Assembly (NCBI GenBank): GCA_964530925.1
Contig: CAZHBZ010000002.1
Coordinates: 3,621 to 67,620, forward strand
Reading direction: 5' to 3'
DNA: 64,000 nucleotides
DNA from: an uncultured Candidatus Saccharibacteria bacterium
GTDB lineage: Bacteria > Patescibacteriota > Minisyncoccia > UBA6257 > 2-01-FULL-56-20
The notes under the pieces are model-generated. The model was given only the letters and a program-made list of their open reading frames with translations. It was not told the DNA's origin and did no database searches. A program made the position numbers and the translations under genes. This document shows positions 3,603-61,706 of this stretch, one piece after another; the stretch's first letter is position 1, and every line of letters starts with the position of its first letter.

Positions 3603-3645
3603 CTCTACCTGCTACTCACTACTTACTACCCACTACCTAACTGCG
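3603..3645 (+). repeat. CTAC-repeat element (CTCTACCTGCTACTCACTACTTACTACCCACTACCTAACT) between the tktN stop and the membrane-protein gene start
   Basis: G-free tract on plus (GTAG-rich in minus mRNA sense); same submotifs as the other family members. Confidence 0.5.
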
Positions 3646-3646
3646 C

Positions 3647-4507
3647 CTACTGGTGTTCGCTTTTAATTTTTCCGGCCAGCGTCCGAAGCTCTTTTAGCGC
3701 AATCTTCGCCTCCTCCGGCTTTGGCGGCTTGCCGTGCCAAGTGTAGTCGTTTTCCATAAAATCCACACCCCTCCCCGGAATCGTGTGCGCGATTATCATT
3801 GTGGGTTTTTCATAAATTGCTTTCGCCTCCGCGCAGGCGGAAATTATCTGATGAAAATCGTGTCCGTTAATTTCCAAAACATGCCAGTTAAAAGCCTCGT
3901 ATTTTTTCCGCAGGGGCTCCAGGGGCATAACCGATTCCGTCACGCCATCAATTTGAATGTTATTCCGATCCAAAATGGCCGTGACATTTGAAAGCCTATT
4001 TTTACCGGCGAACATAATGGCCTCCCAAGTATTCCCCTCCTGGTGCTCCCCATCAGACATCAAACAATAGGTGCGATACTTTGCCTTGTCTAATTTTGCC
4101 GCGAGCGCGAACCCAATAGCCTGGGAAAGGCCAGAGCCAAGCGGTCCCGAAGTTGTCTCTACTCCCGGCAACGATCCGCGATGCGGGTGTCCTTGAAGCC
4201 TTGTTCCTAGCTGTCTTAAGGTTTTAAGTTCCGCCGGCGGGAAATATCCGGCCCGGGCAAGCGTTGCGTAAAACACGGGACAAATATGGCCGTTTGAAAG
4301 CACCACCCGGTCCCGCCCATCCCAATTCGGTTTTTTAGGCTCATGATTCAAAATGTGAAAATAAAGGGCGGTAAAAACATCCGCCATTCCCAAAGGTCCA
4401 GCGGAATGCCCGGAGCCGGCAGTCACAAGCATCTTTATAATATCCTCGCGTATCTGCGTGGCTTTCTCTTCCAAAAATTTCAATTTATCGTCGTGAAGCG
4501 CTTCCAT
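3647..4507 (-). CDS. transketolase, N-terminal (TPP-binding) subunit
   Basis: 286 aa with GSGHSAGPLGMAD... and GHPH... TPP-binding motifs of the transketolase N-domain; split-gene arrangement with the C-subunit gene. Confidence 0.9.
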   Translation of the reverse strand: MEALHDDKLKFLEEKATQIREDIIKMLVTAGSGHSAGPLGMADVFTALYFHILNHEPKKPNWDGRDRVVLSNGHICPVFYATLARAGYFPPAELKTLRQLGTRLQGHPHRGSLPGVETTSGPLGSGLSQAIGFALAAKLDKAKYRTYCLMSDGEHQEGNTWEAIMFAGKNRLSNVTAILDRNNIQIDGVTESVMPLEPLRKKYEAFNWHVLEINGHDFHQIISACAEAKAIYEKPTMIIAHTIPGRGVDFMENDYTWHGKPPKPEEAKIALKELRTLAGKIKSEHQ

Positions 4508-4551
4508 GTAGATTGATTATAACATACCCTCGGTAGCTATTTTCACGCGGG

Positions 4552-5208
4552 TTACGCCGCTAACAATTCTTCGTAAGCGATTTTCGGATCTTTAGCCTCA
4601 AAAATAAATGACGCGGAAATAAGTATATTTGCGCCCGCCGCTTTCACGGCCCTCGCGGTTCCCAAATTGATTCCTCCGTCCACCTCAATATTTGCTTTTG
4701 GAAAACTTTCCCGCAGAAATCTTATTTTTTCTAAAACTATCGGCAAAAAAACCTGGTCCGGCAATCCTGGATAGACTGCGAGTATTTGATATTCGGAAAA
4801 TCTTTTAAAATATTCCCGCCCCATTTCAAGCCTCGTTTCCGGAGAAAAGGCGAGCATCATTTCCACGGCATGCTCTTTGCCAAACTTTTCTATCTCTTCC
4901 GCGGCCTCCGAGGAAAGTGTTTCGGCGTGAACGATAATTCGCTCCGCTCCCGCTTCTATCCAATCCATAATTTGCTTTTCCGGTTCTTCGACCATCAAAT
5001 GGACTTCCAGTTTTAATTTGGAGTTCAAAGCTTTCCATTCCTCGGGCGAACCCCAGGTCTTGTTAAACGTAAATCTGCCGTCGGCTATATCCAAATGGAT
5101 CCAGTCGGAAAACCCTTTGGCTACTCGCGCTCTTTCCCGGGCGCATGCCAAGTCTTTGAAGCGGCAGTTAAGAGAAGGTATGACCTCCATTTGTGATAAT
5201 TTTAGCAC
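4552..5208 (-). CDS. rpe: ribulose-phosphate 3-epimerase
   Basis: IHLDIADGRF..., VDGGIN..., (beta/alpha)8 Rpe signature; the track start at 5208 is GTG; an alternative ATG start at 5190 gives MEVIPSL... Confidence 0.85.
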   Translation of the reverse strand: MLKLSQMEVIPSLNCRFKDLACARERARVAKGFSDWIHLDIADGRFTFNKTWGSPEEWKALNSKLKLEVHLMVEEPEKQIMDWIEAGAERIIVHAETLSSEAAEEIEKFGKEHAVEMMLAFSPETRLEMGREYFKRFSEYQILAVYPGLPDQVFLPIVLEKIRFLRESFPKANIEVDGGINLGTARAVKAAGANILISASFIFEAKDPKIAYEELLAA

Positions 5209-5223
5209 ATTGCGGGACTAAAA

Positions 5224-5240
5224 CCCCCGCGAACGCGGGG
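5224..5240 (-). terminator. GC-rich hairpin (CCCCCGC-GAAC-GCGGGG) followed by GUUUUAG in minus sense; putative intrinsic terminator
   Basis: Perfect 6-7 bp GC stem with a 4-nt loop and a U-rich 3' flank on the minus strand; it overlaps the stop of CDS 5247-5579. Confidence 0.4.
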
Positions 5241-5246
5241 TGTGCT

Positions 5247-5579
5247 TCAGTCTGCCGGGATAACCCGATAATCGCCATTGCGATTTTTCAATATTTTTAT
5301 TTTTTCTCCCTCCCTGGCCCCGAGACGGCAGATATTTTTTGCTACGCACATCTTCCCGTCTTCAAAATATATGGCCAAAGCGCAAATCCTTTTCTGTCTT
5401 TTGAAAACCCAGAAATTCGTGGAGTAGCTAAAATGCATATGCATATATTTCTTTAGTTCCCCTTCGGCCACAAGCGAATAATCCGGTTTGCGACGCATAT
5501 ATCTTGCCAAGGAACTGGCTAGAAGTGAAAAGAGCACGAAGACCGGCAACCAAAGCCGATCCCAGGGAACGCTCCTCAT
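5247..5579 (-). CDS. hypothetical protein with N-terminal membrane anchor
   Basis: 110-aa ORF with one N-terminal transmembrane segment; no recognised domain. Confidence 0.5.
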   Translation of the reverse strand: MRSVPWDRLWLPVFVLFSLLASSLARYMRRKPDYSLVAEGELKKYMHMHFSYSTNFWVFKRQKRICALAIYFEDGKMCVAKNICRLGAREGEKIKILKNRNGDYRVIPAD

Positions 5580-5625
5580 TCTCCACCTCCGACGCGAGCT
5601 AATATAAATTATATACTACGCGCTC

Positions 5626-5647
5626 GAAAAAACGCCCGTCCGGGCGT
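5626..5647 (-). terminator. intrinsic terminator downstream of the glutaredoxin-like gene
   Basis: AAAAAACGCCCG-tc-CGGGCGTTTT: GC stem flanked by A- and T-runs (bidirectional); minus sense reads stem then UUUUUU. Confidence 0.6.
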
Positions 5648-5654
5648 TTTCCAA

Positions 5655-5906
5655 TTAAACCTCTTTGAATATCTCGCGCAAACGCTCCCGATGATAGCCC
5701 ACAAGCAATTCGTCTTCTATTTCTATGACCGGCACAACTTTCGCTCCGGATTTTTTTATCATCTCCTCCCTCGCCGCCATATCCCGGGAAACATCTTTTT
5801 CTTCATAGGCCACACCCCTAACGCCAAAGAAAGACTTCGCCATCCGGCAATAAACGCAGGTCGGAGTGGTGTAAAGAGTAATCTTCTTCATAGCTTTATT
5901 ATACAC
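5655..5906 (-). CDS. glutaredoxin/NrdH-like thiol-disulfide oxidoreductase
   Basis: 83 aa, N-terminal CVYC active-site motif in a thioredoxin-fold context (ITLYTTPTCVYCRMAK). Confidence 0.8.
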   Translation of the reverse strand: MYNKAMKKITLYTTPTCVYCRMAKSFFGVRGVAYEEKDVSRDMAAREEMIKKSGAKVVPVIEIEDELLVGYHRERLREIFKEV

Positions 5907-5914
5907 CTCTTGGC

Positions 5915-6151
5915 TCAGGATATTTCAATCGTTTTTTCCTTGGATTTTACGCCAGAGACAAGCCGCACCCGGCCCAACCCTACGCCGAAATGCCGGGCAA
6001 TAGCCTCCAAGACCGCGAAGTTCGCCTTGTTTTCTTTGGCTGGTTCACGCACCCAAACCGCGAAGGTATTGCTCCCCAAGTCTTCAATCTTTTCCTGCTT
6101 CGCTCCAGGTTTAACTTTTACAGTTATCCGCATTTTATTCGGGGCTAACAA
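5915..6151 (-). CDS. DUF167 (YggU-like) family protein
   Basis: 78 aa; VKVKPGAK...E......VWVREPAKENKAN pattern typical of DUF167. Confidence 0.65.
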   Translation of the reverse strand: MLAPNKMRITVKVKPGAKQEKIEDLGSNTFAVWVREPAKENKANFAVLEAIARHFGVGLGRVRLVSGVKSKEKTIEIS

Positions 6152-7382
6152 TAACGGTCACGAACCGCTCGGGTTTAAGATATTTCGCGCGCAGAGCTTC
6201 GGCATCCGCGAGCCTGGACTTCTCTAAATATCTTTTCATCTTCTTGTACACTCCGGGAACATCTTTAAGCGTTTTCCCGGTCATCAGCCGTTCCCAAACA
6301 AAACCCTCCCAAACCCCAAGATCGTTATCATCCTCAAGGCTCACGGCATCCAAAGCTCTCTCCCGCGCGTCCGCGAAAGCCTTCTTATCGGTAAGCGGAA
6401 TATTGATAAGCCTCTTCATGAGCGCTTCAACCTTCGAAACATTTCCTGGCTTCGTTTCCGCGTAAAAATAAATATAACTGCCGAGCCCGGCGGCGGATGA
6501 AACCGACCCGCCAACGGCGTAAGCCAAGCCACGCTTTTCCCGTATCTCCCGATAAAGCCTGGAATTGCCTCCGATCATTAAAAGCCTTCCAAGGAGCGAT
6601 GAAGCCGCGTCATCTTTGTCGGAAATATCAAAAGGAATTTTGGCCGCCATCATAACTATGGCTTTGTTCCTTTTTGGTTTTTTTATCTCCACCCTTTCTG
6701 TCATCGGCGGAAGATCCAACTCCTCATCCCATTTTTCGTGGCGCAATTCCCCCCTCTTCATCGGAAAATTTTTATTGACGATCTTAACCAATTCCGCGTG
6801 CGCCAATTTCCCGGCGGCGAAAACAAGCGTGTTCGCGGGGATGTGCCATTTTCCTTTAAGTTCCAAGAGATCCTTTCGGGAGATATTTTTCATCCCCTCT
6901 TCCGTCCCGACGCCCTCCCTCCGCATTGGGTTGACCCGCCAAAGGGATTCGCGAATGGCCCGATGAGCGAGGTAATAATCCTCGTCATAATTCCTGGCGC
7001 GTTCTAGGAGAACCGCGTTTTTTTCTTTCTGTAATTCTTTCGCCGGATAAGTTGAGTTCAAATATATGTCGCAGAGGAAATCCACAATTAGCGGAAGTTT
7101 CCTCGCGACACCGGTGCCGTAATAGTCCACGGAAAGCCTGGCGGTCGAAGCGTTGGATCCCAGAAAGTTTTTGGCTTTGAATTCGGCAATATCTCTCGCG
7201 CTCCTTTTCTTCGTCCCCTTAAAGGCCATATGTTCGAAAAAGTGGGATAGCCCGGACTTGTCCTCCGGGTCGTACGCGAATCCGGCCATGCAAGTCACGG
7301 TCACATAAACCTTCCTTTCCGTCGGAATGCCCGCCGAGATTATCCTGAGCCCATCTTTGCGAATTGTTTCTTTTAATTCCAT
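6135..7382 (-). CDS. M16-family zinc peptidase (insulinase-like)
   Basis: Inverted zinc-binding motif HFFEHMAFKGT (HxxEH) near the N-terminus; 415 aa with two M16 domains. Confidence 0.85.
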   Translation of the reverse strand: MELKETIRKDGLRIISAGIPTERKVYVTVTCMAGFAYDPEDKSGLSHFFEHMAFKGTKKRSARDIAEFKAKNFLGSNASTARLSVDYYGTGVARKLPLIVDFLCDIYLNSTYPAKELQKEKNAVLLERARNYDEDYYLAHRAIRESLWRVNPMRREGVGTEEGMKNISRKDLLELKGKWHIPANTLVFAAGKLAHAELVKIVNKNFPMKRGELRHEKWDEELDLPPMTERVEIKKPKRNKAIVMMAAKIPFDISDKDDAASSLLGRLLMIGGNSRLYREIREKRGLAYAVGGSVSSAAGLGSYIYFYAETKPGNVSKVEALMKRLINIPLTDKKAFADARERALDAVSLEDDNDLGVWEGFVWERLMTGKTLKDVPGVYKKMKRYLEKSRLADAEALRAKYLKPERFVTVIVSPE

Positions 7383-7451
7383 AGTTTAATTATAACCCAG
7401 ACCAGGACCGCCTGTCTTTTTATAAGAGGCCCAGAAGACTATAATTTTTTT

Positions 7452-8066
7452 ATGAAGAAGTTCCCGGCAAAATACAGAAAGGATTTCGCCGTCTTCGAGA
7501 AACTCATCACTCCCGCGAAAGTCCAGGATTTTATAAACAAGATCCCGATAAATTTTGAACCCCAAGGCGAGACCTGCCGCTCTCCCCTTTCGACCCTCAA
7601 AGCCAAGCGCGCCCATTGCCTCGAAGGGGCGTACCTCGCCGCAGCCGCGCTCTGGTTTCACGGACACGAACCCTTGCTCTTGGATCTCCGAACCGTCCCC
7701 CGAGACAGCGACCATGTTGTCGCCCTGTTTAAAGAATCCGGCCGCTGGGGCGCGATAAGCAAAACCAACCACGCGGTCTTGCGATATCGGGAACCGGTCT
7801 ACGCTTCCGTCCGGGAACTTGCCATGTCCTATTTCCACGAATATTTTTTGGATGATGGCAAAAAAACCATGCGGGATTATTCCGCTCCATTTAGCCTTTT
7901 GAAATATGGAGATAATTGGCTTGTCTCCAAAAAGAATCTTTGGGATATAGGCGCAGACCTGGACGACTCCAGGCATTTCGGGATACTCCCCAAAAACTTA
8001 CGCTTGCGCCCAGCGGACAAAGTAGAAATTGAAGCGGGGAAAATCACGGAGTGGAAAAGGAGATAG
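7452..8066 (+). CDS. hypothetical protein, possibly transglutaminase-like (Cys-His-Asp) fold
   Basis: 204-aa ORF; spacing of Cys (RAHCLEGAYLAAAAL), His (DHVVALF) and a downstream Asp resembles the transglutaminase-like core; a minus-strand ORF at 7386-7976 overlaps it and is judged spurious. Confidence 0.55.
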   Translation: MKKFPAKYRKDFAVFEKLITPAKVQDFINKIPINFEPQGETCRSPLSTLKAKRAHCLEGAYLAAAALWFHGHEPLLLDLRTVPRDSDHVVALFKESGRWGAISKTNHAVLRYREPVYASVRELAMSYFHEYFLDDGKKTMRDYSAPFSLLKYGDNWLVSKKNLWDIGADLDDSRHFGILPKNLRLRPADKVEIEAGKITEWKRR

Positions 8067-8087
8067 ATTTGTCGGGATGGACCCCGG

Positions 8088-8849
8088 CTACATCAAAATT
8101 GTTTTTATAATTTCCAGAATATCGTGCTTGTGATTGTCGGACAAAACACCAAATATCTTCAAAACTTCCAAAAAGACTTTAATGTTGCTTTCTGTGATTT
8201 CGAAATAGGCCACTTCTTTCGCGCTGGCAACTCGCCCAATTAAATTACTTTCCGCCTTAAGTTCCGAAATCGGAAAACACAGATACAGCATTGGCTGAAT
8301 TCCTACCGCATACTGCTTCTCGGTAATTTTTATTTCGGTAACAATCTCATACCCGTTAAATTTATGGATTAAAAGAGGATATTTAACCTGAGTATATTCA
8401 AAATCAAATCCGTTTATATTTTTCGCTATCGGATGACTGCGATCAATTTGCAATTCGGAATTATTGCCAATCAAATTATTACTTGGAATCGAATCAAGAT
8501 AATCAACAACGGCTTCTAAGTCCTCCCCAGAAATAATCCCCCATTTATAAAAGTGCCAAATATATTCAGATAGCTCATAAAGCGCCTTGGTTTTCCCGTT
8601 CGCACCCGTAAATTGCGTATCCGGCAATGACGATTCCGAAAGTTTTTCGGCTTCCGCCTTAACGACGTCATAACCAATCTGCCATTCGACATAATTGCTT
8701 AAAGCAAATCCATCCCTCCTAACCGCAACAGGCGTTCCATATTCATTTAAAATTGAACGGTTCTTAATGCGGATTTTCCCACTAACAGCAGTTAGCAAGA
8801 TTGGGACTTCAATTTTATGCTCTTGTTGTTTAATTAAAATTTTTGGCAT
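8088..8849 (-). CDS. hypothetical protein; candidate restriction endonuclease partner of the adjacent methyltransferase
   Basis: 253 aa, no recognised family; overlaps the MTase gene by 20 nt on the same strand; AT-rich like the MTase gene; possible degenerate nuclease-like patch IDRSHP...FDFEYTQVK. Confidence 0.45.
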   Translation of the reverse strand: MPKILIKQQEHKIEVPILLTAVSGKIRIKNRSILNEYGTPVAVRRDGFALSNYVEWQIGYDVVKAEAEKLSESSLPDTQFTGANGKTKALYELSEYIWHFYKWGIISGEDLEAVVDYLDSIPSNNLIGNNSELQIDRSHPIAKNINGFDFEYTQVKYPLLIHKFNGYEIVTEIKITEKQYAVGIQPMLYLCFPISELKAESNLIGRVASAKEVAYFEITESNIKVFLEVLKIFGVLSDNHKHDILEIIKTILM

Positions 8850-10002
8850 ATTTTTCGCCTAATTTGCTTCCAAGTAATTCCCTAAAATAGTTATCTATTT
8901 TCGGCTTGGCATCTGGAATTTCCCTAAAATTAAATTTATTTCTTAGGACTGGATTTGTGTGTACGCTTTGGGCGATAAAACATTCTTTAATTTCATTGAA
9001 CTTCTCATTATCGATGATCACATCGCAATTTCCAAGGAAATAGGGCACTTTATCCGCGTATTGTTTGAAGACGTCAATATAACAATAATATGGCAGTTTT
9101 TCCATTAGCACATAGACGGTATTGTAAGTGTCGGAGTCAATAAACGTTCGATTGCGTTTGAGCGCGTTTATATCCCTAAGTGTCCAAAACTTTGCTATTG
9201 GCTTATCGTTTTTATTTAAAAATTTTTTATTCGGATACTTTTGGACATAATTGACTACAGTATCAAAATCGCTTAAACGGAAAAGCCCATCATCTTTTAC
9301 TTTAAACTGATAATTTTGGATATAATCGTAGGTCATCCCTTTCTGATCTTTTTCGTAAAGGGCAATTAAAATCGGGAAGGCCATTCCACGAGACGTATCG
9401 GAAAACTCGTGACTACTTATGATTATTCCATCGATTAATTTATAGTTTTGGGAAAATTTTGAAAGTAAGGCAAAATTGGCTTTTTTAATTAAATAAGACA
9501 AGGGGTGTAAAACACAAACGTAGTCTGCCCCTAATTTATCATAAGAAAGCAAGAACGACATTCCCAGGTCCCTGGTTTTTATATCAGAATCAATCCCGTT
9601 TTGAACAGAAGTGTCTTTTATAGAATTACGAATTATGGATGTAGTGTCGTTGTATGGCGGGTTGCCTATGGCTATAAGTTTTTCTTCGCCCCTTATGGCT
9701 AAATTATCGCGACAAACATTCGAAAGAGAATTTTGGTGAATAAAATTCGCGCCGCTAATTGTTTTTTTTGCTTCAAAAATAGCCTTTTGATCGATATCCG
9801 CCCCCACAAATCTTTTCGCGACCCCTCCCCTTGCCAAAAATGATCCGTAGCCGCAAGACGAATCTAAAATTGTAAAGTCTTTAAGGTTCGTGATGTTTTT
9901 TCGCAAAATGGAATAGGCCAGATCAACAATGGTCTCTGGCGTGTAATAAGAGCCGAGATTGATAGTGTCGGCGTAATTTAGGTGTTTCTGATTCCTGTCC
10001 AT
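8830..10002 (-). CDS. gamma-class DNA methyltransferase (N6-adenine or N4-cytosine) with C-terminal target-recognition domain
   Basis: YYTPETIVDLAYSIL (as in Eco57I/TaqI-like gamma MTases), motif I ILDSSCGYGSFL, motif IV IGNPPY, followed by about 200 aa of TRD. Confidence 0.85.
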   Translation of the reverse strand: MDRNQKHLNYADTINLGSYYTPETIVDLAYSILRKNITNLKDFTILDSSCGYGSFLARGGVAKRFVGADIDQKAIFEAKKTISGANFIHQNSLSNVCRDNLAIRGEEKLIAIGNPPYNDTTSIIRNSIKDTSVQNGIDSDIKTRDLGMSFLLSYDKLGADYVCVLHPLSYLIKKANFALLSKFSQNYKLIDGIIISSHEFSDTSRGMAFPILIALYEKDQKGMTYDYIQNYQFKVKDDGLFRLSDFDTVVNYVQKYPNKKFLNKNDKPIAKFWTLRDINALKRNRTFIDSDTYNTVYVLMEKLPYYCYIDVFKQYADKVPYFLGNCDVIIDNEKFNEIKECFIAQSVHTNPVLRNKFNFREIPDAKPKIDNYFRELLGSKLGEKYAKNFN

Positions 10003-10041
10003 CTGGGTTCATTATACCAGTTTTCAGGTCTCAATAAGAAT

Positions 10042-10074: not shown

Positions 10075-10079
10075 GCTAG

Positions 10080-10347: not shown

Positions 10348-10364
10348 TTCTACTACTTACTATG
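10348..10364 (+). repeat. short CTAC-repeat element (TTCTACTACTTACTATG) abutting the TPM gene stop
   Basis: Same submotifs; low complexity. Confidence 0.3.
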
Positions 10365-10367: not shown

Positions 10368-11297
10368 TCACCATCCCCCGCTTGCGCCTCCTCCGCCGGA
10401 ACGTCCGCCGCCGAAACCCCCGAACCCTCCGCCGCTGTGACTTCCTCCGCCAAACCCGCCAAAGCCTCCGCCGCCTCCAAGCCAGGGGCCTTTTCCGCCG
10501 CTGTCCTTCCACATCTTATAGCTTTTAGAAACGAGAAAATCGAAAAGCGCGCCAAAGCCTCCTAAGAAAATAATTATTAAAATCCGCCAGACCATCCCGC
10601 CTATCCAAAGCCAAAGCAAAAGACCCAAGAGTCCGCCCAGCACTCCCCCGAGCCACCAGGACTTTGTCCGCCCCAAAAAGATCGCGAATATTCGCAGGAT
10701 CAAAAACGGAATAAAAATAAATATCCAGCCACCGTTGGAGAATAAAAGCTTCATTATCCAAGAATCCTTTAGTTTCTCGCCGCTTTCGGAAAATCCCGCC
10801 TCGCTTTTTACGGCCAAAACAATATCGTCCACCGCCAAGTTCAATCCTTTATAGTATTCCCCCTCTTTAAAGGCCGGAACAATATCCTCGTTTATTATTT
10901 GCGCGCTTTGTATATCCGTTAGCGCTCCCTCAAGTCCATATCCGGTTTGAATGCGCGCCTTTCTGTCTTCCAAAGAGACCAGGACGAGCGCTCCGTTGTC
11001 TACTTTTTCTTTACCGATTTTCCAAGTATCGAATATTTTTTGCGCGGCATTTTCGATCGTGTCGCCATTCAAGGATTTTACGGTCACCACCGCTATTTCT
11101 ATTGTTGTCGTGGCATTAAAATCCCTGAGTTTCAATTCCAGGGCGGAAACTTCTTCCGCGCTCATCATTCCCGCGAAATCGCTCACGAACCCTGCGGGTT
11201 TTTCGGGGACAACAAAAGCCGCGAGCGAAGCTCGCGGCGAGATTGCGACCGCGAGCAAAAGGAAAGTGAATGCCTTAAGGGCGGTCTTCATCTTCAA
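10368..11297 (-). CDS. TPM-domain (TLP18.3/Psb32/MOLO-1) protein with signal peptide, C-terminal TM segment and Gly-rich tail
   Basis: Signal peptide, then the TPM domain (DFAGMMSAEEVSALELKL...ALVLVSLEDRKARIQTGYGLEGALTD), a TM segment and a GGFGG repeat tail; ends in a TGA stop. Confidence 0.8.
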   Translation of the reverse strand: MKMKTALKAFTFLLLAVAISPRASLAAFVVPEKPAGFVSDFAGMMSAEEVSALELKLRDFNATTTIEIAVVTVKSLNGDTIENAAQKIFDTWKIGKEKVDNGALVLVSLEDRKARIQTGYGLEGALTDIQSAQIINEDIVPAFKEGEYYKGLNLAVDDIVLAVKSEAGFSESGEKLKDSWIMKLLFSNGGWIFIFIPFLILRIFAIFLGRTKSWWLGGVLGGLLGLLLWLWIGGMVWRILIIIFLGGFGALFDFLVSKSYKMWKDSGGKGPWLGGGGGFGGFGGGSHSGGGFGGFGGGRSGGGGASGGW

Positions 11298-12746: not shown

Positions 12747-12782
12747 AAAAACCGCTCCGTTTGTCTACGGAACGGTTTTTGT
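12747..12782 (-). terminator. intrinsic terminator downstream of groEL (bidirectional A-run/T-run flanks)
   Basis: AAAAACCGCTCCGTttgtctaCGGAACGGTTTTT: interrupted GC stem with A5 and T5 flanks. Confidence 0.6.
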
Positions 12783-12793: not shown

Positions 12794-12816
12794 CGCTACC
12801 CACTACTCACTATCTC
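12794..12816 (+). repeat. short CTAC-repeat element (CGCTACCCACTACTCACTATCTC) abutting the groEL stop codon
   Basis: Same CTAC/CCAC/TCAC submotifs; lies between the groEL stop and its terminator. Confidence 0.4.
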
Positions 12817-14466
<1,650 letters not shown>

Positions 14467-14544: not shown

Positions 14545-14616
14545 GCTTCACAAAATATTTTTATTCGACTTATTTTTTGAAATTAGTAATTGGAAATTAG
14601 GATTTGCAATTTTGGA

Positions 14617-14907: not shown

Positions 14908-15020
14908 TGTTATAAGTTATTTGTTATTAGTTTTACTTACTAGCAATCCCGACCTTCGTCTGCTAATGATAGTAAGAATTTTTTTTAAAGGCAAGCGTGT
15001 TCTGCTCGCCCCCGGAAGAC

Positions 15021-15992: not shown

Positions 15993-16097
15993 GGTAATTA
16001 GTTAGTAGTTGGTCGTAGGTAGCAAGTGGTTAATATGGGAATGGAATCCACGGTTCTGGACGCATCACGACTAACGACAGACGATCTACGACTTACT
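15993..16097 (-). repeat. inverted pair of CTAC/CGAC/TAAC repeat elements (GT-rich arm 15993-16031, CA-rich arm 16062-16097) between the SPW gene stop and the trxB start
   Basis: GTCGTAGGTAG...GTTAGTAG on one arm and CACGACTAACGACAGACGATCTACGAC on the other; could form a long interrupted RNA stem; member of the window-wide repeat family. Confidence 0.6.
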
Positions 16098-36647: not shown

Positions 36648-36670
36648 GTCGCAAAATTATAGTTTAAAAA

Positions 36671-52896: not shown

Positions 52897-52937
52897 AGGC
52901 GTGAGTAGTTTGTCGTAAGTCGTTGGTAGTTAGACTT
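52897..52937 (-). repeat. GT-rich (plus-sense) arm of an inverted repeat pair flanking the four-helix-bundle gene; its reverse complement forms the leader of the ligase gene
   Basis: GAGTAGTTTGTCGTAAGTCGTTGGTAGTTAGAC, about 75% match to the reverse complement of the arm at 53312-53344. Confidence 0.55.
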
Positions 52938-52945: not shown

Positions 52946-53311
52946 TTATTCTAGACTTTTAGCCAATTTGTTGAGCATCCTCATAACGTCATCAAGCAGC
53001 ACTAGAACTTTAGCATAATCTTCTTTGCGCCCAAAACCAAGATTCTTGGCAATCTCAAGCTGCGTTTCCAATTCCGCGCCAGAACCAAACGCTATTAACA
53101 CAAAATGCCTGAAATCTTTTTTTGTTCCTCACCTGCTTCCTTCGGCTATATTTGAAGGGATCGAGACAGCCGATCTTTTAATCTGGGATACAAGAGCGAA
53201 TCTTTCGTCGGACGGGAATACCTCGGTTAAGGAATACACCAAACCCGCAAGTTCGACGGATTTTTGCCAAACATGAAGTTCTCTATATGAACCAAGTTTC
53301 ATTGCCCCCAT
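52946..53311 (-). pseudogene. four-helix-bundle protein (23S rRNA intervening-sequence protein family) interrupted by an in-frame TGA at 53129-53131
   Basis: MGAMKLGSYRELHVWQKSVELAGLVYSLTEVFPSDERFALVSQIKRSAVSIPSNIAEGSR-TGA-GTKKDFRHFVLIAFGSGAELETQLEIAKNLGF...LNKLAKSLE; both halves match the family consensus in one frame. Confidence 0.75.
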
Positions 53312-53344
53312 AACTACCTACGACCCACGACTAACGACCAACTA
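53312..53344 (-). repeat. CA-rich (plus-sense) arm of the inverted repeat pair; overlaps the rny stop codon
   Basis: AACTACCTACGACCCACGACTAACGACCAACTACC containing the family core CACGACTAAC. Confidence 0.55.
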
Positions 53345-55048: not shown

Positions 55049-55085
55049 CCTATAACCCAACACCTATAACCTATCACCTATTTCT
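55049..55085 (+). repeat. CA/CT-rich leader element (CCTATAACCCAACACCTATAACCTATCACCTATTTCT) directly upstream of the gpmI ATG
   Basis: G-free 37-nt tract abutting the start codon with no Shine-Dalgarno; a degenerate member of the CTAC-type repeat family. Confidence 0.45.
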
Positions 55086-56621: not shown

Positions 56622-56640
56622 AAACAGACTTTTAGAATTT

Positions 56641-56842: not shown

Positions 56843-56924
56843 TTCAACCCTCCATCCGCTTTAAGCTGATTATAATTATAGCCTCAATATTCCGCGACGC
56901 AACCTAAATTGGTATAATCAAAAC

Positions 56925-57281
56925 ATGTTCAGACTGATTGCGCGCGCGATAATCGCGGTTGTCGTTAATGCTCTTGGCCTTTTGGCCGCTTCGCACTACA
57001 TAAACGGCTTTAACCTGAATAATGACTTCGGGGAACTTATAATCGTCGCGGCTGTTTTCACCGCGATTTATTTTATCCTGCGCCCGATAGTCAAAATGAT
57101 ATTGGGTCCGTTTTTGGTGCTTACTTTGGGCCTAGGGCTTATCGCGGTCAACGCCATAATGCTCTATGTTCTTGACTTAGCCTCCAAAAATCTTATGATA
57201 GATGGCGTCGGAGCGCTCCTTGAGGCAACACTGCTTCTAAGCGTCCTGAACTTTATTCTGCATTACGCGGAAAAAGAATAG
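56925..57281 (+). CDS. DUF360/phage-holin-4_2-family membrane protein
   Basis: 118 aa, four TM helices; N-terminus RAIIAVVVNALGLLAASHYINGF resembles the YvlD/DUF360 signature. Confidence 0.6.
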   Translation: MFRLIARAIIAVVVNALGLLAASHYINGFNLNNDFGELIIVAAVFTAIYFILRPIVKMILGPFLVLTLGLGLIAVNAIMLYVLDLASKNLMIDGVGALLEATLLLSVLNFILHYAEKE

Positions 57282-57393
57282 TGGACAGAAATTAACCTAA
57301 TTGCTCTAATTACCCTAATTGACCGGGGCGGGCTCGCCTCATCTTAGAATAATTAGTTGTAATTAAAATAATTAGAAATAATTTACTTAAGAT

Positions 57394-57606
57394 ATGATCT
57401 CAATAATATATATAATCGTAGCCGTTGCCTTAGTAACCCTAATCCTGCTTCAGCAGCGCTCCGGAGGAATGTCCGGTCTTTTTGGCGGCGACTCAAGCGG
57501 CTTTTATCAGACCAGGCGCGGGCTCGAAAAACTTTTTCTTTGGGGAACCGTCGTTCTTTCCGTTCTTTTTGTGGCGCTCTCCCTTTGGCAGTTAATCCAA
57601 AAATAA
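57394..57606 (+). CDS. secG: preprotein translocase subunit SecG
   Basis: 70 aa, two TM helices separated by a Gly-rich loop (LLQQRSGGMSGLFGGDSSGF). Confidence 0.8.
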   Translation: MISIIYIIVAVALVTLILLQQRSGGMSGLFGGDSSGFYQTRRGLEKLFLWGTVVLSVLFVALSLWQLIQK

Positions 57607-57609
57607 ATC

Positions 57610-57630
57610 TCCCGCGAACAGCGGGAATTT
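57610..57630 (+). terminator. weak terminator-like hairpin after secG (TCCCGC-gaaca-GCGGGA)
   Basis: 6-bp GC stem, weak T-tract (ATTT); the same CCCGCGAAC-GCGGG hairpin core as at 5224-5240. Confidence 0.3.
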
Positions 57631-57690
57631 AAAGATGGCTCGTTTCACGCTATACTTTAGTAGCACGATTTTGATTTGATATTTTGCGCG

Positions 57691-57724
57691 CGCTACCTAC
57701 TACCTACTACTAACTACCCACTGC
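57691..57724 (+). repeat. CTAC-repeat leader element (CGCTACCTACTACCTACTACTAACTACCCACTGC) upstream of the SBP gene
   Basis: Member of the CTAC/TAAC repeat family; ends 9 nt before the ATG. Confidence 0.5.
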
Positions 57725-57733
57725 ATTTCAAAG

Positions 57734-59383
57734 ATGGTTTGGCTAAAAAAAATATTCGCATCCTTTTCCAGAAAAGAACGTCTTAGTTTCGTTTTTGCTT
57801 CAACTCTGGCGGCGGCCGCGGGGGCGCTGCTTCTTTGGCTCATATTCATAAACGTAACCACAACCGCGCCCGCCCGAGGCGGCGACTATGCCGAAGGCTT
57901 CTTGGGCCAGCCGGCATACGCGAATCCCCTTCTTGCGGAGACCCCCGTAGATAAAGCCTTAGTACGGCTAGTATTCGCGAACCTTCCAGACCTATCTGAC
58001 AAAATCGAAAGCGACAAGACCGGGAAAAGCTATAAGGTCCGGCTCAAGGAAAATCTCTTCTGGTCTAACGGACAGAAGCTCACAAGCGACGACGTTATCT
58101 TCACCCTCCAAAAGCTCCAAGATCCGCAAACCGCGAGTCCATATTTTTCGAACTGGCAAGGCGTTGCCGCCGCCCGAGTGAGCGAACTGGAAGTTCAGTT
58201 CACCCTCGCCGCTCCTTACGCGTTCTTTTCGCAAAGCCTTCAAAACTTCTATGTCGTCCCCAAGCACCTTTTTGCCGACACGCCAGCGTCCAATTGGAAA
58301 TTATCCGATTACAACCTGAAGCCGGTCGGTTCCGGTCCTTTTTCTTTTTACTCCTACGAAAAACGGGATGATGGATTTATAAATGCTTATCATCTAAAAG
58401 CGAACGAAAAGTATGCCGGCGGGGCCCCTTATATAGAAAACTTTGATTTGCGTTTTTTCACCAAACCAGAAGATATTGTTAAGGCGTTTAACTCCGGACA
58501 AATTGACGCCATCTCCGATTTGGATCCGGAAACTCTAAAAAGCATTCGCCGCACCTACAATCTCGCGGAGTTTCTTTTGCCGAACTATTACGCGGTTTTC
58601 TGGAATCAAAGCCAAAACGAGGCACTGACAGACTCATCCGTGCGGCAAGCCCTCTCGCTTTCGATAAACAGAAGCGAAATTATCCGCGACGCCCTTTACG
58701 GTTATGGCCGCGAAAGTCTTGGTCCGATTCCAAAAGATATCCCGGGGCTCGATATATCTTATTCCGCTCCCCAAAACGATCCGGATGGAGCGAACAACCT
58801 CTTGGAGTCTGCCGGATGGAAAATGGGAGACGGAGGCCTCCGCGTGAAAGAAACCAAAACCGGATTCTTAGAATTGAAATTCCGATTGACCGTCCCAAAT
58901 ATCCCGTTTTTGGTTTCCACCGCAAAAACTCTAGCCTCGGAATGGTCCAAGGTTGGAGCGATAGCCGAACTCAAGATTATGCCCCCGGATGAAATAATCT
59001 CCGGTCAAATAAAAAACAGGGATTACGAAGCTGTTCTTTTCGGGAACCTCTTGGGCTCGAATGGCGATCTGTACGCATTCTGGCACTCTTCGGAAAAATA
59101 CTATCCCGGATTGAACCTGTCCCTCTATGGGAACAAGCAGACTGATAAGCTTTTGGAATCCATACGTCAAAACCCGGATAAAACAAGCCGAGAAGAGCAA
59201 TTTCAAGATCTCGCGGATAAGATTACCGATGCCCTTCCGGCAACCTTCCTTTACTCTCCATCTTATCTCTTTGTATCAAGCCGCGATTTGGGCGGCGTCG
59301 AAGGAGGGTTCCTGGGCGAGAACGCGGATCGCCTTCGAAAAGCTAGGGACTGGTTCGTGAAAGTCGCGCGGGTATTCAAATAA
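57734..59383 (+). CDS. ABC transporter substrate-binding protein, family 5 (oligopeptide/nickel type)
   Basis: 549 aa, N-terminal TM/signal anchor, SBP_bac_5 architecture. Confidence 0.8.
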   Translation: MVWLKKIFASFSRKERLSFVFASTLAAAAGALLLWLIFINVTTTAPARGGDYAEGFLGQPAYANPLLAETPVDKALVRLVFANLPDLSDKIESDKTGKSYKVRLKENLFWSNGQKLTSDDVIFTLQKLQDPQTASPYFSNWQGVAAARVSELEVQFTLAAPYAFFSQSLQNFYVVPKHLFADTPASNWKLSDYNLKPVGSGPFSFYSYEKRDDGFINAYHLKANEKYAGGAPYIENFDLRFFTKPEDIVKAFNSGQIDAISDLDPETLKSIRRTYNLAEFLLPNYYAVFWNQSQNEALTDSSVRQALSLSINRSEIIRDALYGYGRESLGPIPKDIPGLDISYSAPQNDPDGANNLLESAGWKMGDGGLRVKETKTGFLELKFRLTVPNIPFLVSTAKTLASEWSKVGAIAELKIMPPDEIISGQIKNRDYEAVLFGNLLGSNGDLYAFWHSSEKYYPGLNLSLYGNKQTDKLLESIRQNPDKTSREEQFQDLADKITDALPATFLYSPSYLFVSSRDLGGVEGGFLGENADRLRKARDWFVKVARVFK

Positions 59384-59553
59384 AGCGAGAGCGGCCGGAC
59401 AAGCTTGACCTCGTCCGGGATTAACGCTAGGATATATCCAACTTCGATTCCTCCTGTGTCCACACATCCAAAAAGAAGGATATCTTTCTCCAGCCGGTTT
59501 TTTGTTTATCTCAATAAATAATATCTACACCCAAGCAAGCGGCAAATTAAATT

Positions 59554-59573
59554 TGGCGGAAACTGGAAGACGC
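59554..59573 (+). repeat. partial, degenerate copy of the tRNA-Leu 5' region (D-arm) about 40 nt upstream of the tRNA gene
   Basis: TGGCGGAAACTGGAAGACGC versus tRNA TGGCGAAACTGGCAGACGC (about 20 of 22 identical). Confidence 0.45.
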
Positions 59574-59595
59574 AAAGACGATTGTTAATTTAAAA

Positions 59596-59679
59596 GCCCT
59601 CCTGGCGAAACTGGCAGACGCGCAGGCTTCAGGAGTCTGTGGGAGCAATCCCGTGGAGGTTCAAATCCTCTGGAGGGCA
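59596..59679 (+). tRNA. tRNA-Leu (anticodon CAG), type II with long variable arm, CCA not encoded
   Basis: Manually folded: acceptor GCCCTCC/GGAGGGC, D-arm GCG-AAACTGGCAGAC-GCG, anticodon stem CAGGC/GTCTG with loop TTCAGGA (anticodon CAG), variable arm, T-arm GAGG-TTCAAAT-CCTC, discriminator A. Confidence 0.85.
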
Positions 59680-59745
59680 CACTAAGTAAAATTAGTAAAA
59701 AAAAATATAAACAAGTCGAAAGTTGGTCATTTGTATTGAGGCTTA

Positions 59746-59785
59746 AAACTACTCACTACTCACGACTAACCACCAACTAATTCAA
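59746..59785 (+). repeat. CTAC-repeat leader element (AAACTACTCACTACTCACGACTAACCACCAACTAATTCAA) abutting the rnj ATG
   Basis: Contains the family core CACGACTAAC; near-identical in composition to the trxB leader (CTACCTACGACCAACTACTAACTAATTAC). Confidence 0.55.
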
Positions 59786-61609
59786 ATGATGCAAAACACA
59801 TCAAGAAGGGGCGCCCCAAGAGGGCACCGATCGAATGCCCCGGCGGCGCGCCATGCGTCCCCAGGACGCGCCGGCGCTCACCCGCAAAGACATACGCCTT
59901 CCGCTAAACCGGAAGCCGACCGCATTTATAAACATGAGCCGAAAAAGGAACTCAACCTCCGCTTCATTCCGCTTGGCGGATTGGAAGAAATAGGCCGCAA
60001 CTGCCAATATTTCGAATACGGCAACGAAATAGTTATCGTGGATGTCGGCATTCAATTCCCCGAAGAGGCTACCCCGGGCATCGACTACATAATTCCCAAT
60101 GTCGCCTCCTTGGAACACAGAAAGCACGACATCAAGGGGATAATCCTCACCCACGGCCACTATGACCACATCGCGGCCATCCACTATTTGGTGGAAAAAC
60201 TCGGCAATCCGCCGATCATAACCTCCGCCTTCACCAAGGCGATGGTCGAAAAACGGCACGAAGAGTTCACGAACGCCCCGCGCCTGAATTTCATAACCGT
60301 GAAAGACGGCAGTCGCGTTCCCCTTTCTCCGAATTTAACCGCCGAATTTTTTGCGGTCGGGCACACCATTCCCGAAGCCCTGGGTTTTATCCTTAACACC
60401 CCCTCCGGTAAAATGGTCAACTTCGGAGACTTCCGCCTGGACATAGACAAAGACGGCAAACCGACCAATCTGGAAGTTTTCCACCGCTTGGCCAAAGAAG
60501 GCATTCACAGCATTTTCATTGATTCCACAAACGCCGACTATCCGGGCTATTCCGCCTCGGAACGCGTAGTTGAATCGGAACTGGAGAAACTCCTTAAAAA
60601 CGCGCAGGGCCGCGTTATAATCGCGACCTTCGCCTCGCTCGTGGACAGACTCCTCGAGATCATCAAGATCGCGGCTAAACTTGGCCGCAAAGTAGCCATC
60701 AACGGCCGCTCCATGAAGACCAATTTGGAAATCGCCAAACAATTGGGCTACTTCAAAGAAATGAAGGATCAAATGATCCCGCTTGAAGAAGTGAACAAGC
60801 ACAAAGACGATAAGATATTGATTCTCACAACCGGCGCGCAGGGCGAACCGAACGCCGGACTCATGAGAATCGTAAGCGGCGAACACAAAGTCGTAAGGCT
60901 CAAACCCACCGACACGATAATCTTTTCTTCCTCGGTGGTTCCCGGAAACGAACGCTCCGTGCAATCGCTTCAGGACAATATCGCCCGCCAGGTCGACGAA
61001 TTATACAATTCCAAACTCTTGGATATTCATGCTTCCGGCCACGCGCACGGCGACGATATAGAACTAATTTTGAGCATCATCAAGCCGAAATTCGTGGTAC
61101 CGATACACGGCTATTACTTTAAGCGTAAAACTCTGATTAAGATCGCGAAGCGCGCGGGCATGAGCAAAGAAAGAGTCATCATGATGGATAATGGAGACAT
61201 CGCGGATATCTTGCCGGACAAATTCTCCGTCTCCGGCGAAAAAGTCCCGGCCTCCTATGTCATGGTCGACGGCTTGGGTGTCGGCGACGTGGAAGAAGTG
61301 GTGCTGCGCGACAGATTGAACCTAGCCAAAGAAGGCATGGTGGTCATCATCGTCACGCTTGATAGGAGAAACGGCCGAGTTCTAAAAAACCCCGACATTA
61401 TCTCCCGCGGATTCATCTATCTCAAAGATAACCAAGTCATCCTTGAAGATATCCGAAAAAAAGTCCGCGCCGTCATCTCTCGACTTCCCGCCCATCAGGA
61501 AGTGGAAACTGACTACTTGAAAACGCTCATCCGCGATCAGGTCGGCCAATTCTTGTACACCAAGACCAAACGCCGCCCCATGATCCTCCCCGTGACAATA
61601 GAGGTTTAA
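59786..61609 (+). CDS. rnj: ribonuclease J (beta-CASP metallo-beta-lactamase) with a 55-aa Arg/Pro/Ala-rich N-terminal extension
   Basis: HGHYDH motif, beta-CASP and C-terminal domain; N-terminus MMQNTSRRGAPRGHRSNAPAARHASPGRAGAHPQRHTP... precedes the conserved ...LRFIPLGGLEEIGRN start. Confidence 0.9.
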   Translation: MMQNTSRRGAPRGHRSNAPAARHASPGRAGAHPQRHTPSAKPEADRIYKHEPKKELNLRFIPLGGLEEIGRNCQYFEYGNEIVIVDVGIQFPEEATPGIDYIIPNVASLEHRKHDIKGIILTHGHYDHIAAIHYLVEKLGNPPIITSAFTKAMVEKRHEEFTNAPRLNFITVKDGSRVPLSPNLTAEFFAVGHTIPEALGFILNTPSGKMVNFGDFRLDIDKDGKPTNLEVFHRLAKEGIHSIFIDSTNADYPGYSASERVVESELEKLLKNAQGRVIIATFASLVDRLLEIIKIAAKLGRKVAINGRSMKTNLEIAKQLGYFKEMKDQMIPLEEVNKHKDDKILILTTGAQGEPNAGLMRIVSGEHKVVRLKPTDTIIFSSSVVPGNERSVQSLQDNIARQVDELYNSKLLDIHASGHAHGDDIELILSIIKPKFVVPIHGYYFKRKTLIKIAKRAGMSKERVIMMDNGDIADILPDKFSVSGEKVPASYVMVDGLGVGDVEEVVLRDRLNLAKEGMVVIIVTLDRRNGRVLKNPDIISRGFIYLKDNQVILEDIRKKVRAVISRLPAHQEVETDYLKTLIRDQVGQFLYTKTKRRPMILPVTIEV

Positions 61610-61611
61610 AA

Positions 61612-61706
61612 TTAGTGGTTAGAAAATAGTAGATGGTATATAGTAGAATTAAGAATAAGATTTCCGGATTGCTCCTATCTACCATTCACTATCTACTATC
61701 TACTCA
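61612..61706 (+). repeat. inverted pair of repeat elements (GT/AG-rich arm 61612-61650, CA-rich arm 61674-61706) between rnj and trpS
   Basis: TAGTGGTTAGAAAATAGTAGATGGTATATAGTAG ... CCTATCTACCATTCACTATCTACTATCTACTCA abutting the trpS ATG. Confidence 0.55.

Follow-up and report, generated by a model that had tools for sequence, protein, structure and literature searches.

Polar heptameric repeats in the gene spacers of a Candidatus Saccharibacteria contig as possible arms of intervening-sequence-like hairpin elements

Among the long simple repeats of bacteria, heptamers are the most common, and their role is unexplained. Here we describe a family of such repeats in a 64,000-nt stretch of DNA (the window) from an uncultured Candidatus Saccharibacteria bacterium, one of the ultra-small Patescibacteria (contig CAZHBZ010000002.1, positions 3,621 to 67,620). 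The arrays are short and strand-asymmetric, lie between genes, start at stop codons or end at start codons, and in one spacer bracket a gene for a small four-helix-bundle (4HB) protein. We propose, with moderate confidence, that these tracts are the arms of hairpin elements that resemble the intervening sequences (IVSs) of 23S rRNA and reside, filled, empty, or half, in the spacers of mRNAs.

The short tandemly repeated repetitive (STRR) sequences of cyanobacteria, described by Mazel et al. in 1990, are reportedly tandem heptanucleotides in non-coding DNA, with several unit families per genome and an unknown function. STRRs are usually near-perfect and longer than the arrays of the window. To our knowledge, neither a polarity rule nor a link to 4HB genes has been described for them; like STRRs, the arrays that flank the cyanobacterial 4HB genes examined here are tandem heptanucleotides. 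Other heptamers were described by Rehm et al. 2015 (PMC4692102): GGGAATC in Xanthomonas campestris and Xanthomonas citri, and GGGGA(C/T)T in Nostoc/Anabaena PCC 7120. About 90% of these repeats are intergenic, four units are preferred, 70-75 convergent pairs occur, and G-quadruplexes were proposed for a family whose function is unknown. Their G-rich strand is coding within 0-50 bp after a stop, which the repeat may overlap, and non-coding within 0-50 bp before a start; position is conserved between close relatives, whereas length and sequence vary. The window arrays share with these heptamers the 7-nt unit, the intergenic bias, a length of about four units, the polarity, and the convergent pairs, but their units lack G-runs and are far more degenerate, and their host is a Patescibacterium. 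A link to 4HB genes is not reported for the Xanthomonas and Nostoc repeats in that paper. Because the window unit has no G-runs, it cannot form G-quadruplexes, which removes the only structural explanation offered for the Xanthomonas and Nostoc repeats and points to a cause that is independent of unit sequence.

Two further systems come close. TAACTGA arrays of 2-6 units, almost all intergenic, occur in marine Beggiatoaceae and in some Cyanobacteria and Bacteroidetes (MacGregor 2015, PMC4679880). They end a few nucleotides before starts without a Shine-Dalgarno sequence, sometimes overlap the upstream stop, and carry stops in three frames; binding by S1, Csp, or CsrA was proposed. Apart from the different unit (TAACTGA versus CTACYNA in the window), the arrangement is reversed: in Beggiatoaceae the stop-rich orientation faces the start and inverted pairs number 1/170, whereas in the window it is after stops that the stop-rich form occurs, with its complement toward starts, and pairs are frequent. 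The 23S rRNA IVS of Coxiella burnetii has a 28-bp inverted-repeat stem, and RNase III in vitro cuts it at the first of 2-3 tandem GACAGAT heptamers, immediately before the ATG of the S23p (4HB) gene (Warrier et al. 2016, PMC4990558). Such 23S IVSs (Coxiella, Leptospira, and others) and the window elements have in common an inverted-repeat stem, which in one of the four window pairs stands around a PF05635 open reading frame (ORF) with heptamers just upstream of its ATG; unlike the IVSs, the window elements lie between protein-coding genes on mRNAs and are mostly empty or half. In the literature outside most subscription journals, we found no heptads in Patescibacteria and no general link between 4HB genes and heptads, only the single-organism description from Coxiella. 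The window family is a highly degenerate variant of the polar heptameric repeats, a class already known though unexplained; it lacks G-quadruplex potential and occurs in a phylum new to the class. The association with 4HB/IVS genes had not been generalised, and it offers the heptad class an origin and a mechanism that can be tested. Three puzzles become testable with it, namely what heptameric repeats do, how rRNA intervening sequences arose, and what part Avd-like proteins play where they stand alone.

We called an array where at least three C[TGC]A[CT] cores lay in register, and we compared periods of 4-11 nt. Period 7 alone was enriched: 11 in-register arrays occurred at this period versus 0-4 at the others, and a motif-free self-match scan of the window gave 9 regions at lag 7 and 0-3 at the remaining lags. 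All 11 arrays are intergenic (6,393 nt, 10% of the window), with none in the 57,711 nt of coding DNA. Five hundred dinucleotide shuffles of the intergenic DNA yielded a mean of 0.08 arrays and a maximum of two, so the tracts that an earlier note on this DNA had singled out as a family do exceed what intergenic composition predicts. The sequence CTACNNNCTACNNNCTAC, with at most one mismatch allowed, matched 10 times versus 0.07 expected. A logo of 43 units gives the degenerate heptamer C-T/G-A-C-Y-N-A (CTACYNA), with C (100%), T or G, A (100%), C or T, Y (91%), N (G in 1/43), and A (81%) at successive positions. Positions 5-7 are not part of the detection pattern, and hence Y5, A7, and the scarcity of G at 5-7 are independent of it. 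Conservation within the unit is position-specific, with degeneracy at 3/7 positions, and arrays comprise 3-5 units.

All ten intervals listed in the earlier note hold the tracts described there (the one at 10348-10364 is weak, with ~2 units), and its picture of a dispersed, strand-asymmetric family with a shared core stands. Its CTAC, CGAC, and TAAC elements, however, are not mixed units but one degenerate tandem heptamer; the 7-nt periodicity, which links the window family to the known heptameric repeats, had been missed. The shared decamer CACGACTAAC is exact at three sites, as claimed, although the positions (16066, 53326, and 59761) had been placed 1-4 nt off. On the plus strand, the tract 3' of RNase Y (53312-53344) is a direct copy of the one in the rnj leader (59746-59785), with identity at 28/33 positions. 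All arrays fall within 3.6-16.1 kb and 52.9-61.7 kb of the window. Three contigs from other, independent assemblies of the same population (99.8-99.96% identical to the window) showed no difference in array copy number. Iteration is neither perfect nor near-perfect, and we saw no variation in length from strain to strain; variation appeared only between species-level relatives. A scan of the window against Rfam returned two tRNAs only, with no known RNA family in the spacers, no rRNA, and no 16S.

The form of an array depends on the gene end that it adjoins (Table 1). In the sense of the mRNA, the G/U-rich form (NRGUAGU)n starts at or at most 5 nt after a stop codon (transketolase-N, TPM, groEL, SPW, RNase Y, and rnj), and the G-poor form (ACUACYN)n comes to an end 0-9 nt short of an ATG (groES, trxB, Wzy, gpmI, the solute-binding protein gene, rnj, and trpS). 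The earlier note had seen the tracts at four of these stops (groEL, TPM, RNase Y, and SPW) and, groES apart, at these starts, and had rightly described the starts as lacking a Shine-Dalgarno sequence: none of the seven array-led genes has one, and they carry 0-3 G in the last 30 nt versus a typical 5-9. The polarity (G-rich in sense at the stop, G-poor at the start) is obeyed by 13/13 CTAC-family arms, which represent about 8-9 independent sites. A pair in the order G-arm then C-arm reads alike on both strands, and therefore the arm order is a real asymmetry of the element. The SPW and RNase Y genes take their TAG stop from the array itself. G-rich arms contain 4-8 stop triplets each, compared with 0-3 in each G-poor arm, and the G-rich arms show UAG-N4 spacing. 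The setting of the arms is not attenuator-like.

This polarity also disposes of a strand rule. The earlier note had described single copies as C/A-rich on the plus strand, which is true in the window but is not a rule: position relative to ORF ends governs it, and the plus-strand C/A richness of single copies is due to gene orientation. A plus-strand or replication-strand rule was rejected, since GC skew is negative throughout whatever the gene direction, yet four arms are G-rich on the plus strand, as the gene ends predict. We also rejected a promoter role for the arrays. Promoter-like sites lie upstream of some arrays (57628-57656; 14994-14966) and none lies within one, and their total is not above that in shuffles.

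Complementary arms form four pairs in the window, at SPW|trxB, RNase Y|Wzy, rnj|trpS, and tRNA-Leu|rnj. Folding predictions agree with the earlier note that the tracts occur singly or as inverted pairs able to fold. The rnj|trpS spacer has a predicted fold of -25.8 kcal/mol (z = -3.35 versus shuffles), in which the base of the stem extends from immediately 3' of the stop to immediately 5' of the ATG, and the CUAU/CCAU unit variant of the trpS-side arm is mirrored in the 5' arm. The predicted hairpins of SPW|trxB and of tRNA-Leu|rnj (the rnj leader) reach z = -2.5 and z = -2.76, respectively. Single arms are predicted to be unpaired, as expected of G-free or C-free sequence. In a duplex matrix, every G-rich arm pairs with every G-poor arm, and the strongest pairs (-46 kcal/mol) are non-cognate because the arms are copies of one sequence. 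The earlier note had reserved a special part for G-U pairs in RNA, which was not borne out: pairing is better on the sense strand in 6 and on the antisense strand in 9 of 15 arm pairs, and we rejected the idea that G-U wobble betrays selection acting on the sense RNA, as there is no bias.

The only gene enclosed by window arms is the 4HB gene, not a known transposase. It occupies one reading frame (52946-53311) and belongs to PF05635/TIGR02436, the "23S rRNA intervening-sequence protein" family, which is related to Avd of diversity-generating retroelements. Its upstream array (53312-53344) starts with the stop codon of RNase Y (53342-53344) and ends at the 4HB ATG (53311). A single in-frame stop interrupts the frame at codon 61. 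An independent assembly (L041; L-numbers denote sequences compared with the window) shows the same split, and the gene is probably a pseudogene, the alternative being a read-through stop.

Is this arrangement peculiar to the window? We examined 21 4HB contexts: the window, L005, L027, six more from the candidate phyla radiation (CPR; L042-L047), and 12 plasmid contexts (L048-L059), the last comprising nine cyanobacterial ones plus Riemerella, Gemmatirosa, and Azospirillum (23S IVS). In this sampling, tblastn against plasmids mostly returned Nostoc, Calothrix, Trichormus, and Anabaena. The 21 contexts span five phyla (Patescibacteria, Cyanobacteria, Bacteroidota, Gemmatimonadota, and that of Azospirillum). 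Among lags of 4-11, a lag of 7 gave the best self-match in 16/21 flanks upstream of the gene and in 16/21 downstream of it, and in three contexts a lag of 8 was best on either side. Period-7 or period-8 arrays stand beside nearly all 21 genes, mostly purine/G-rich upstream and the complement downstream. At least three in-register TAGs occur in 6/9 CPR upstream flanks versus ~1% of random 80-nt windows. In L005 and L027, an intact 4HB gene lies between rnj and trpS, with (NNNNTAG)n before it and (CTANNNN)n after it, and the six CPR homologs, each at a different gene junction, all show the array-4HB-array layout (6/6). L047 has CCACTAG x5 and related units before the gene and TGGCTAG x5 after it (duplex -77 kcal/mol). 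A neighbor's stop may be supplied by the array (ackA in L043), or the array may be read as a neighbor's N-terminus (tpiA in L045). Inverted arrays flank the gene in Nostoc edaphicum ((GGGAGTA)8 ... (TCCCTAC)5), Stanieria, Leptolyngbya, Geminocystis, Picosynechococcus, and Riemerella, and the 23S rRNA IVS of Azospirillum has heptad arms on both sides (GGACGGA TGACAGA ... / TCCGTCC TCTGTCT ...). The two copies in Nostoc 7120 have a clear array downstream only, the period-8 arrays of Gemmatirosa are apparently direct, not inverted, those of Pseudanabaena are direct, and those of one Calothrix are weak.

We made several side observations on these genes. The 4HB proteins are 62-75% identical among distant CPR lineages, which suggests horizontal spread. 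4HB cassettes with heptad arrays sit between adjacent cas genes of CRISPR operons in L053 (Pseudanabaena, cas6|cas4) and L059 (Picosynechococcus, cas10|cmr3). In L042 (813-3363), a cassette lies between an ORF with a TraC/VirB4 N-terminal domain (216 aa) and a DUF87/AAA_10/TraG P-loop ORF, and it looks as if it had broken up a VirB4-type gene to leave two ORFs; 900 nt upstream there is another 4HB copy, which is truncated and has TAATTAG arrays. On either side of its 4HB gene, inside the heptad arms, L044 (1410-1925) carries a ~20-nt direct repeat (CTGAAATTATTTATA[A/G]TC), which could be a trace of the insertion mechanism.

Relatives with an RNase J gene 60-85% identical to that of the window come from metagenome-assembled genomes labelled Parcubacteria, Ca. 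Liptonbacteria, and Ca. Paceibacterota. Period-7 arrays are frequent in many of them, with 16 in L004 and six each in L002, L003, L021, and L029, and the self-match scan found none in L001, L007, L012, and L013. The CTAC flavor is largely private to the window lineage: L001, L002, L003, L014, and L015 have 1-3 in-register arrays of this type each, and ten further relatives have none. Unit sequences vary between and within the relatives' genomes (TAGAANN/CTANNTT, TTATTAG, GTTAC, CGTTNGT, and others); TAG/TAA or their complements recur in the units, and inverted pairs within one spacer are frequent. A single junction illustrates this range. The rnj|trpS spacer holds an empty heptad hairpin in the window, L002, and L016, and a 4HB gene in L005 and L027; elsewhere it holds a single TAG array (L004, L006/L025), an overlapping TAATG (L014), or a plain terminator followed by a leaderless-type promoter (L001, L018, and L033). 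The hairpins of the window, L016, and L002 are built from different units, and of the 39 pairs in their common structure, six show compensatory double changes. Between L016 and the window, the coding DNA that flanks this junction is ~86% identical and the spacer 62-71%.

Across window positions 58707-61969, we also observed that L016 is ~100% identical for the first 1.24 kb (up to and including the rnj leader plus some 160 nt at the start of rnj) and ~86% identical thereafter, such that its contig is a recombinant or else a chimera that arose when two populations were assembled. These populations carry different rnj|trpS heptad hairpins.

We suggest that the full element consists of a purine/G-rich heptad array (here NRGTAGT, 3-5 units), a small 4HB gene (PF05635, Avd-like), and a complementary G-poor array (ACTACYN). 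The window would then contain one element with a decayed 4HB gene (RNase Y|Wzy), three empty hairpins (SPW|trxB, rnj|trpS, and tRNA-Leu|rnj), and several half copies. The window copies all lie between protein-coding or tRNA genes, none in helix 25 or 45 of 23S rRNA. The element would be co-transcribed with its neighboring genes. Its first arm would adjoin or supply the upstream stop and present UAG/UGA/UAA in all three frames, since 7 is not a multiple of 3; its second arm would reach the next AUG nearly G-free, and therefore without alternative start codons, Shine-Dalgarno-like sequence, or self-structure. Paired, the two arms would give an interrupted stem of 25-35 bp whose base juxtaposes the upstream stop and the downstream start. 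By analogy with the 23S rRNA IVS, which is cut at heptamers, the stem is probably a processing site for RNase III. Cleavage would free the loop (the 4HB mRNA, if present) and leave the downstream cistron an open, G-free leader for Shine-Dalgarno-independent initiation. What stays with the host would be benign or useful, a stop-rich C-free trailer together with a G-free, start-codon-free, unstructured leader, through which the arms may affect translation. The polarity would follow from the fixed G-arm-then-C-arm topology and from an element that fills the whole spacer from stop to next start. Solo and half copies may derive from 4HB cassettes or serve as docking sites for them.

A wider extension is tentative and, in our judgment, unlikely to hold in full. 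Heptameric repeats (cyanobacterial STRRs, Xanthomonas GGGAATC, Beggiatoa TAACTGA, and CPR arrays), 23S IVSs, and the very abundant PF05635 (Avd-like) proteins might all be footprints of one widespread kind of minimal selfish cassette, made up of a 4HB gene with inverted heptad arrays on either side. Such a cassette would enter rRNA hairpins, the spaces between genes, or genes themselves and be cut from the transcript at the stem, leaving empty hairpins or half-arms that hosts use as leaders, trailers, and processing sites; a 4HB oligomer would recognize the arrays and aid the spread of the element.

Several observations weigh against the hairpin-element reading. First, a 4HB gene is present in only 1/4 window pairs, and that copy is broken. 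Second, the closest relative (L001, RNase J 85% identical) lacks arrays at the same genes, and therefore the host does not need them. Third, the polarity has exceptions: the CTAATT...AATTAG pair (57297-57376), which has a counterpart in L022, a tract of C type 3' of the groES stop, and the direct arrays of Pseudanabaena L053. Fourth, the arm units of the widespread CPR cassettes (CCANTAG/GGTNTAG) differ from the GTAG/GTCG units of the window. Fifth, pairing of 5' and 3' arms within one mRNA, tried as a matter of cognate-arm specificity, was rejected, as cognate arms are no better partners, rnj|trpS excepted; and because sense pairing is not favored over antisense pairing, the complementarity could reflect an inverted repeat at the DNA level or common origin. 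Lastly, it is the architecture, and not any sequence remnant in the loops, that suggests that solo arms derive from cassettes.

Part of the evidence could be read differently. The G-poor arrays might be translation signals, that is, G-free unstructured leaders that replace the Shine-Dalgarno sequence through S1 or another single-strand binder, with the G-rich copies as incidental complements. We consider this possible but unlikely. The seven array-led, G-depleted starts described above fit it, as do the single arrays that are predicted to be fully single-stranded, and the omega leader of tobacco mosaic virus is a G-free parallel. The heptamers of MacGregor 2015 likewise end ~1 nt before starts in spacers without ribosome-binding sites (PMC4679880). 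However, as many arrays stand in the opposite sense right after stops, some of them followed only by a terminator (groEL), and leader function cannot explain those. Moreover, the orthologs in the closest relative have plain A-rich leaders, relatives also place G-rich arrays directly before ATGs (4HB genes; trpS in L006), and where a spacer holds both arms, the leader is tied up in a stem.

Neutral slippage would be a simpler source of tandem repeats. Under this explanation, which we hold to be improbable, the arrays are by-products of replication slippage, which is said to favor 7-nt units (the "LSSR" of Mrazek 2007), and persist where they are harmless, without function or mobility. According to work cited in PMC4679880 and PMC4692102, heptamers are the most abundant class of long simple sequence repeat in many bacteria; the rapid turnover of units between relatives, the differences within genomes, and the relatives without arrays point the same way. 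Yet conservation falls on fixed positions (C1, A3, Y5, A7) and does not decay evenly, copy number is constant across the three same-population assemblies, and near-identical copies occur at unlinked sites (53312 versus 59746; the decamer). Strict polarity and codon adjacency, the co-variation of paired arms, and the tight association with one protein family are likewise at odds with slippage.

The fixed core and variable spacer positions, repeated 3-5 times per array, would suit a set of multivalent sites for an oligomeric RNA- or single-stranded-DNA-binding protein that reads a core of 3-5 nt every 7 nt (a HutP-like hexamer, a KH or cold-shock-domain protein, or a pentameric 4HB protein). HutP recognizes UAG spaced by 4 nt (UAG-N4-UAG), and such arrays stand beside the 4HB genes in nearly all 21 contexts. 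We nevertheless give this explanation scant credence. Cores differ widely between and even within genomes, and therefore one specificity cannot account for them all; the window, in which no search aimed at a regulator was made, yielded no candidate protein; and Avd is reported to bind nucleic acid without known heptad specificity.

Far less probable still are repetitive extragenic palindromic (REP) sequences and bacterial interspersed mosaic elements (BIMEs), or classical MITEs (miniature inverted-repeat transposable elements), mobilized in trans by a REP-associated tyrosine transposase (RAYT) or another transposase. The window arms, like such elements, are small, dispersed, intergenic, non-coding, and often inverted, with near-identical copies. 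Unlike them, they show heptad periodicity and strand-skewed arms; REP/BIME elements and MITEs have neither and depend on RAYTs or transposases. The REP/BIME label of the earlier note therefore fails: the arms are compositionally skewed heptad arrays and not GC-rich palindromes, single arms cannot self-fold, and no transposase or RAYT was seen among the Pfam-scanned neighbors or in the gene tables of same-population contigs, which cover part of the genome only. Its "MITE-like" is nearer, as one pair encloses a small gene, others look empty or half, and rnj|trpS is empty or 4HB-filled among relatives, but no target-site duplication was seen at the inspected borders, which are the stop and start codons of the neighbors. 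A role of the arms as translational insulators, the G-rich arm stopping ribosomes in all frames and its complement doing likewise for antisense translation, is equally hard to believe: stops recur every 7 nt, so that three units cover all frames (a point also made for TAACTGA in PMC4679880), G-rich arms are richer in them, and arrays supply the real stops of SPW, RNase Y, and ackA in L043, but Xanthomonas GGGAATC and several cyanobacterial 4HB arms (e.g., AAGGGAA) are stop-free in every frame on inspection of the units, which means that insulation cannot be the general principle, and selection for back-up stops is usually weak.

Table 1. Heptad arrays and related features of the window (window coordinates; strand as transcribed)
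Coordinates	Strand	Feature	Remark
3603-3645	-	G/U-rich array in sense, 5 units; plus strand CTACCTG CTACTCA CTACTTA CTACCCA CTACCTA	Single arm
10348-10364	-	Weak G/U-type tract, ~2 units, 3 nt 3' of the stop of the TPM-domain gene (10368-10370)	Under the 3-unit threshold
12794-12816	-	G/U-rich array, 3 units, immediately 3' of the groEL stop (12817-12819)	Terminator hairpin follows
14908-14936	-	Variant G-poor array, AUAACNN x4 in sense, adjoins the groES ATG (14907)	Missed by the earlier note
15993-16029	-	G-poor array CCACUUG CUACCUA CGACCAA CUACUAA CUAAUUA (sense), adjoins the trxB ATG (15992)	3' arm of SPW|trxB pair
16060-16097	-	G/U-rich array in sense, overlapping and supplying the stop of the SPW-repeat gene (71 aa), TAG at 16086-16088	5' arm of SPW|trxB pair
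52897-52937	-	G-poor array CUACCAA CGACUUA CGACAAA CUACUCA (sense), 5 nt 5' of the Wzy_C (O-antigen ligase-like) ATG (52896)	3' arm around 4HB gene
52946-53311	-	PF05635/TIGR02436 4HB gene, exactly between the arms	In-frame stop, codon 61
53312-53344	-	G/U-rich array UAG UUGGUCG UUAGUCG UGGGUCG UAGGUAG UU	5' arm around 4HB gene
55049-55085	+	Variant G-free array CCUAUAA CCCAACA CCUAUAA CCUAUCA CCUAUUU, 1 nt 5' of the gpmI ATG (55086)	Single arm
57297-57376	+	Distinct related pair: CUAAUU x3, GC-rich center, AAUUAG x3; period 8-10, reversed arm order	From holin-like gene stop to secG ATG; missed by the earlier note
57691-57724	+	G-poor array CUACCUA CUACCUA CUACUAA CUACCCA, 9 nt 5' of the solute-binding protein gene ATG (57734)	Single arm, predicted single-stranded
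59721-59740	+	Decayed G/U-type arm AGUUGGUCAUUUGUAUUGAG, downstream of tRNA-Leu	75% complementary to the rnj leader array; missed by the earlier note
59746-59785	+	G-poor array CUACUCA CUACUCA CGACUAA CCACCAA CUAAUUC, 2 nt 5' of the rnj ATG (59786)	Partner of 59721-59740
61610-61650	+	G/U-rich array UUAGUGG UUAGAAAA UAGUAGA UGGUAUA UAGUAGA, directly 3' of the rnj stop (61607-61609)	5' arm of rnj|trpS hairpin
61675-61706	+	G-free array CUAUCUA CCAUUCA CUAUCUA CUAUCUA CUCA, adjoins the trpS ATG (61707)	3' arm of rnj|trpS hairpin

A few sites call for detail beyond the table. The array at 3603-3645 begins 5 nt 3' of the transketolase-N stop (3647-3649), ends 15 nt 5' of the ATG (3589) of a 163-aa ORF, and is predicted to be unstructured. 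That ORF (3098-3589, minus strand) has a weak DUF996 match and lies between the genes for the N-terminal (3647-4507) and C-terminal (2104-3093) transketolase subunits. Loose (T)TAG repeats continue downstream of the weak tract at 10348-10364, toward tRNA-Ser. A canonical terminator hairpin (12747-12780) follows the groEL trailer array. The C-type trailer tract of groES lies at ~14575-14616 and is absent from the list in the earlier note. The CTAATT...AATTAG family, with its C-type arm after the stop and its G-type arm before the start, also occurs downstream of rnj in L022.

As for gene starts in general, the earlier note had set the array-led genes against those with a Shine-Dalgarno sequence. 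The contrast is true, but it involves few genes: a Shine-Dalgarno sequence is recognizable in only ~8 window genes, and many others look leaderless. In about 12 genes, a TATAAT-like box lies 6-9 nt 5' of the ATG and a Shine-Dalgarno sequence is absent (e.g., 2029-2045, 4508-4530, 7383-7451, 10003-10020, 36648-36670, and 56910-56924), and their mRNAs are probably leaderless or nearly so. For CPR biology, the G-free heptad leader is a third class of gene start beside the leaderless and the Shine-Dalgarno starts. In L003 and L019, a different heptad family runs into a TATAAT box.

The window is ~90% coding; as far as 54.9 kb most genes lie on the minus strand, and beyond it most lie on the plus strand. 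GC skew is -0.05 to -0.20 across positions 1-64000; as it stays negative at 55-62 kb, in spite of the change of the genes to the plus strand, it follows the replication strand and not the transcription strand. From 17 to 52 kb extends a long minus-strand cluster of polysaccharide and glycosyltransferase genes, with the Wzy_C gene first, almost no spacers, and no heptad arrays. A low-GC island at 8001-10000 (0.38 versus ~0.47) holds a 253-aa ORF and an N6-DNA-methylase-like gene (8830-10002) and may be an acquired restriction-modification module.

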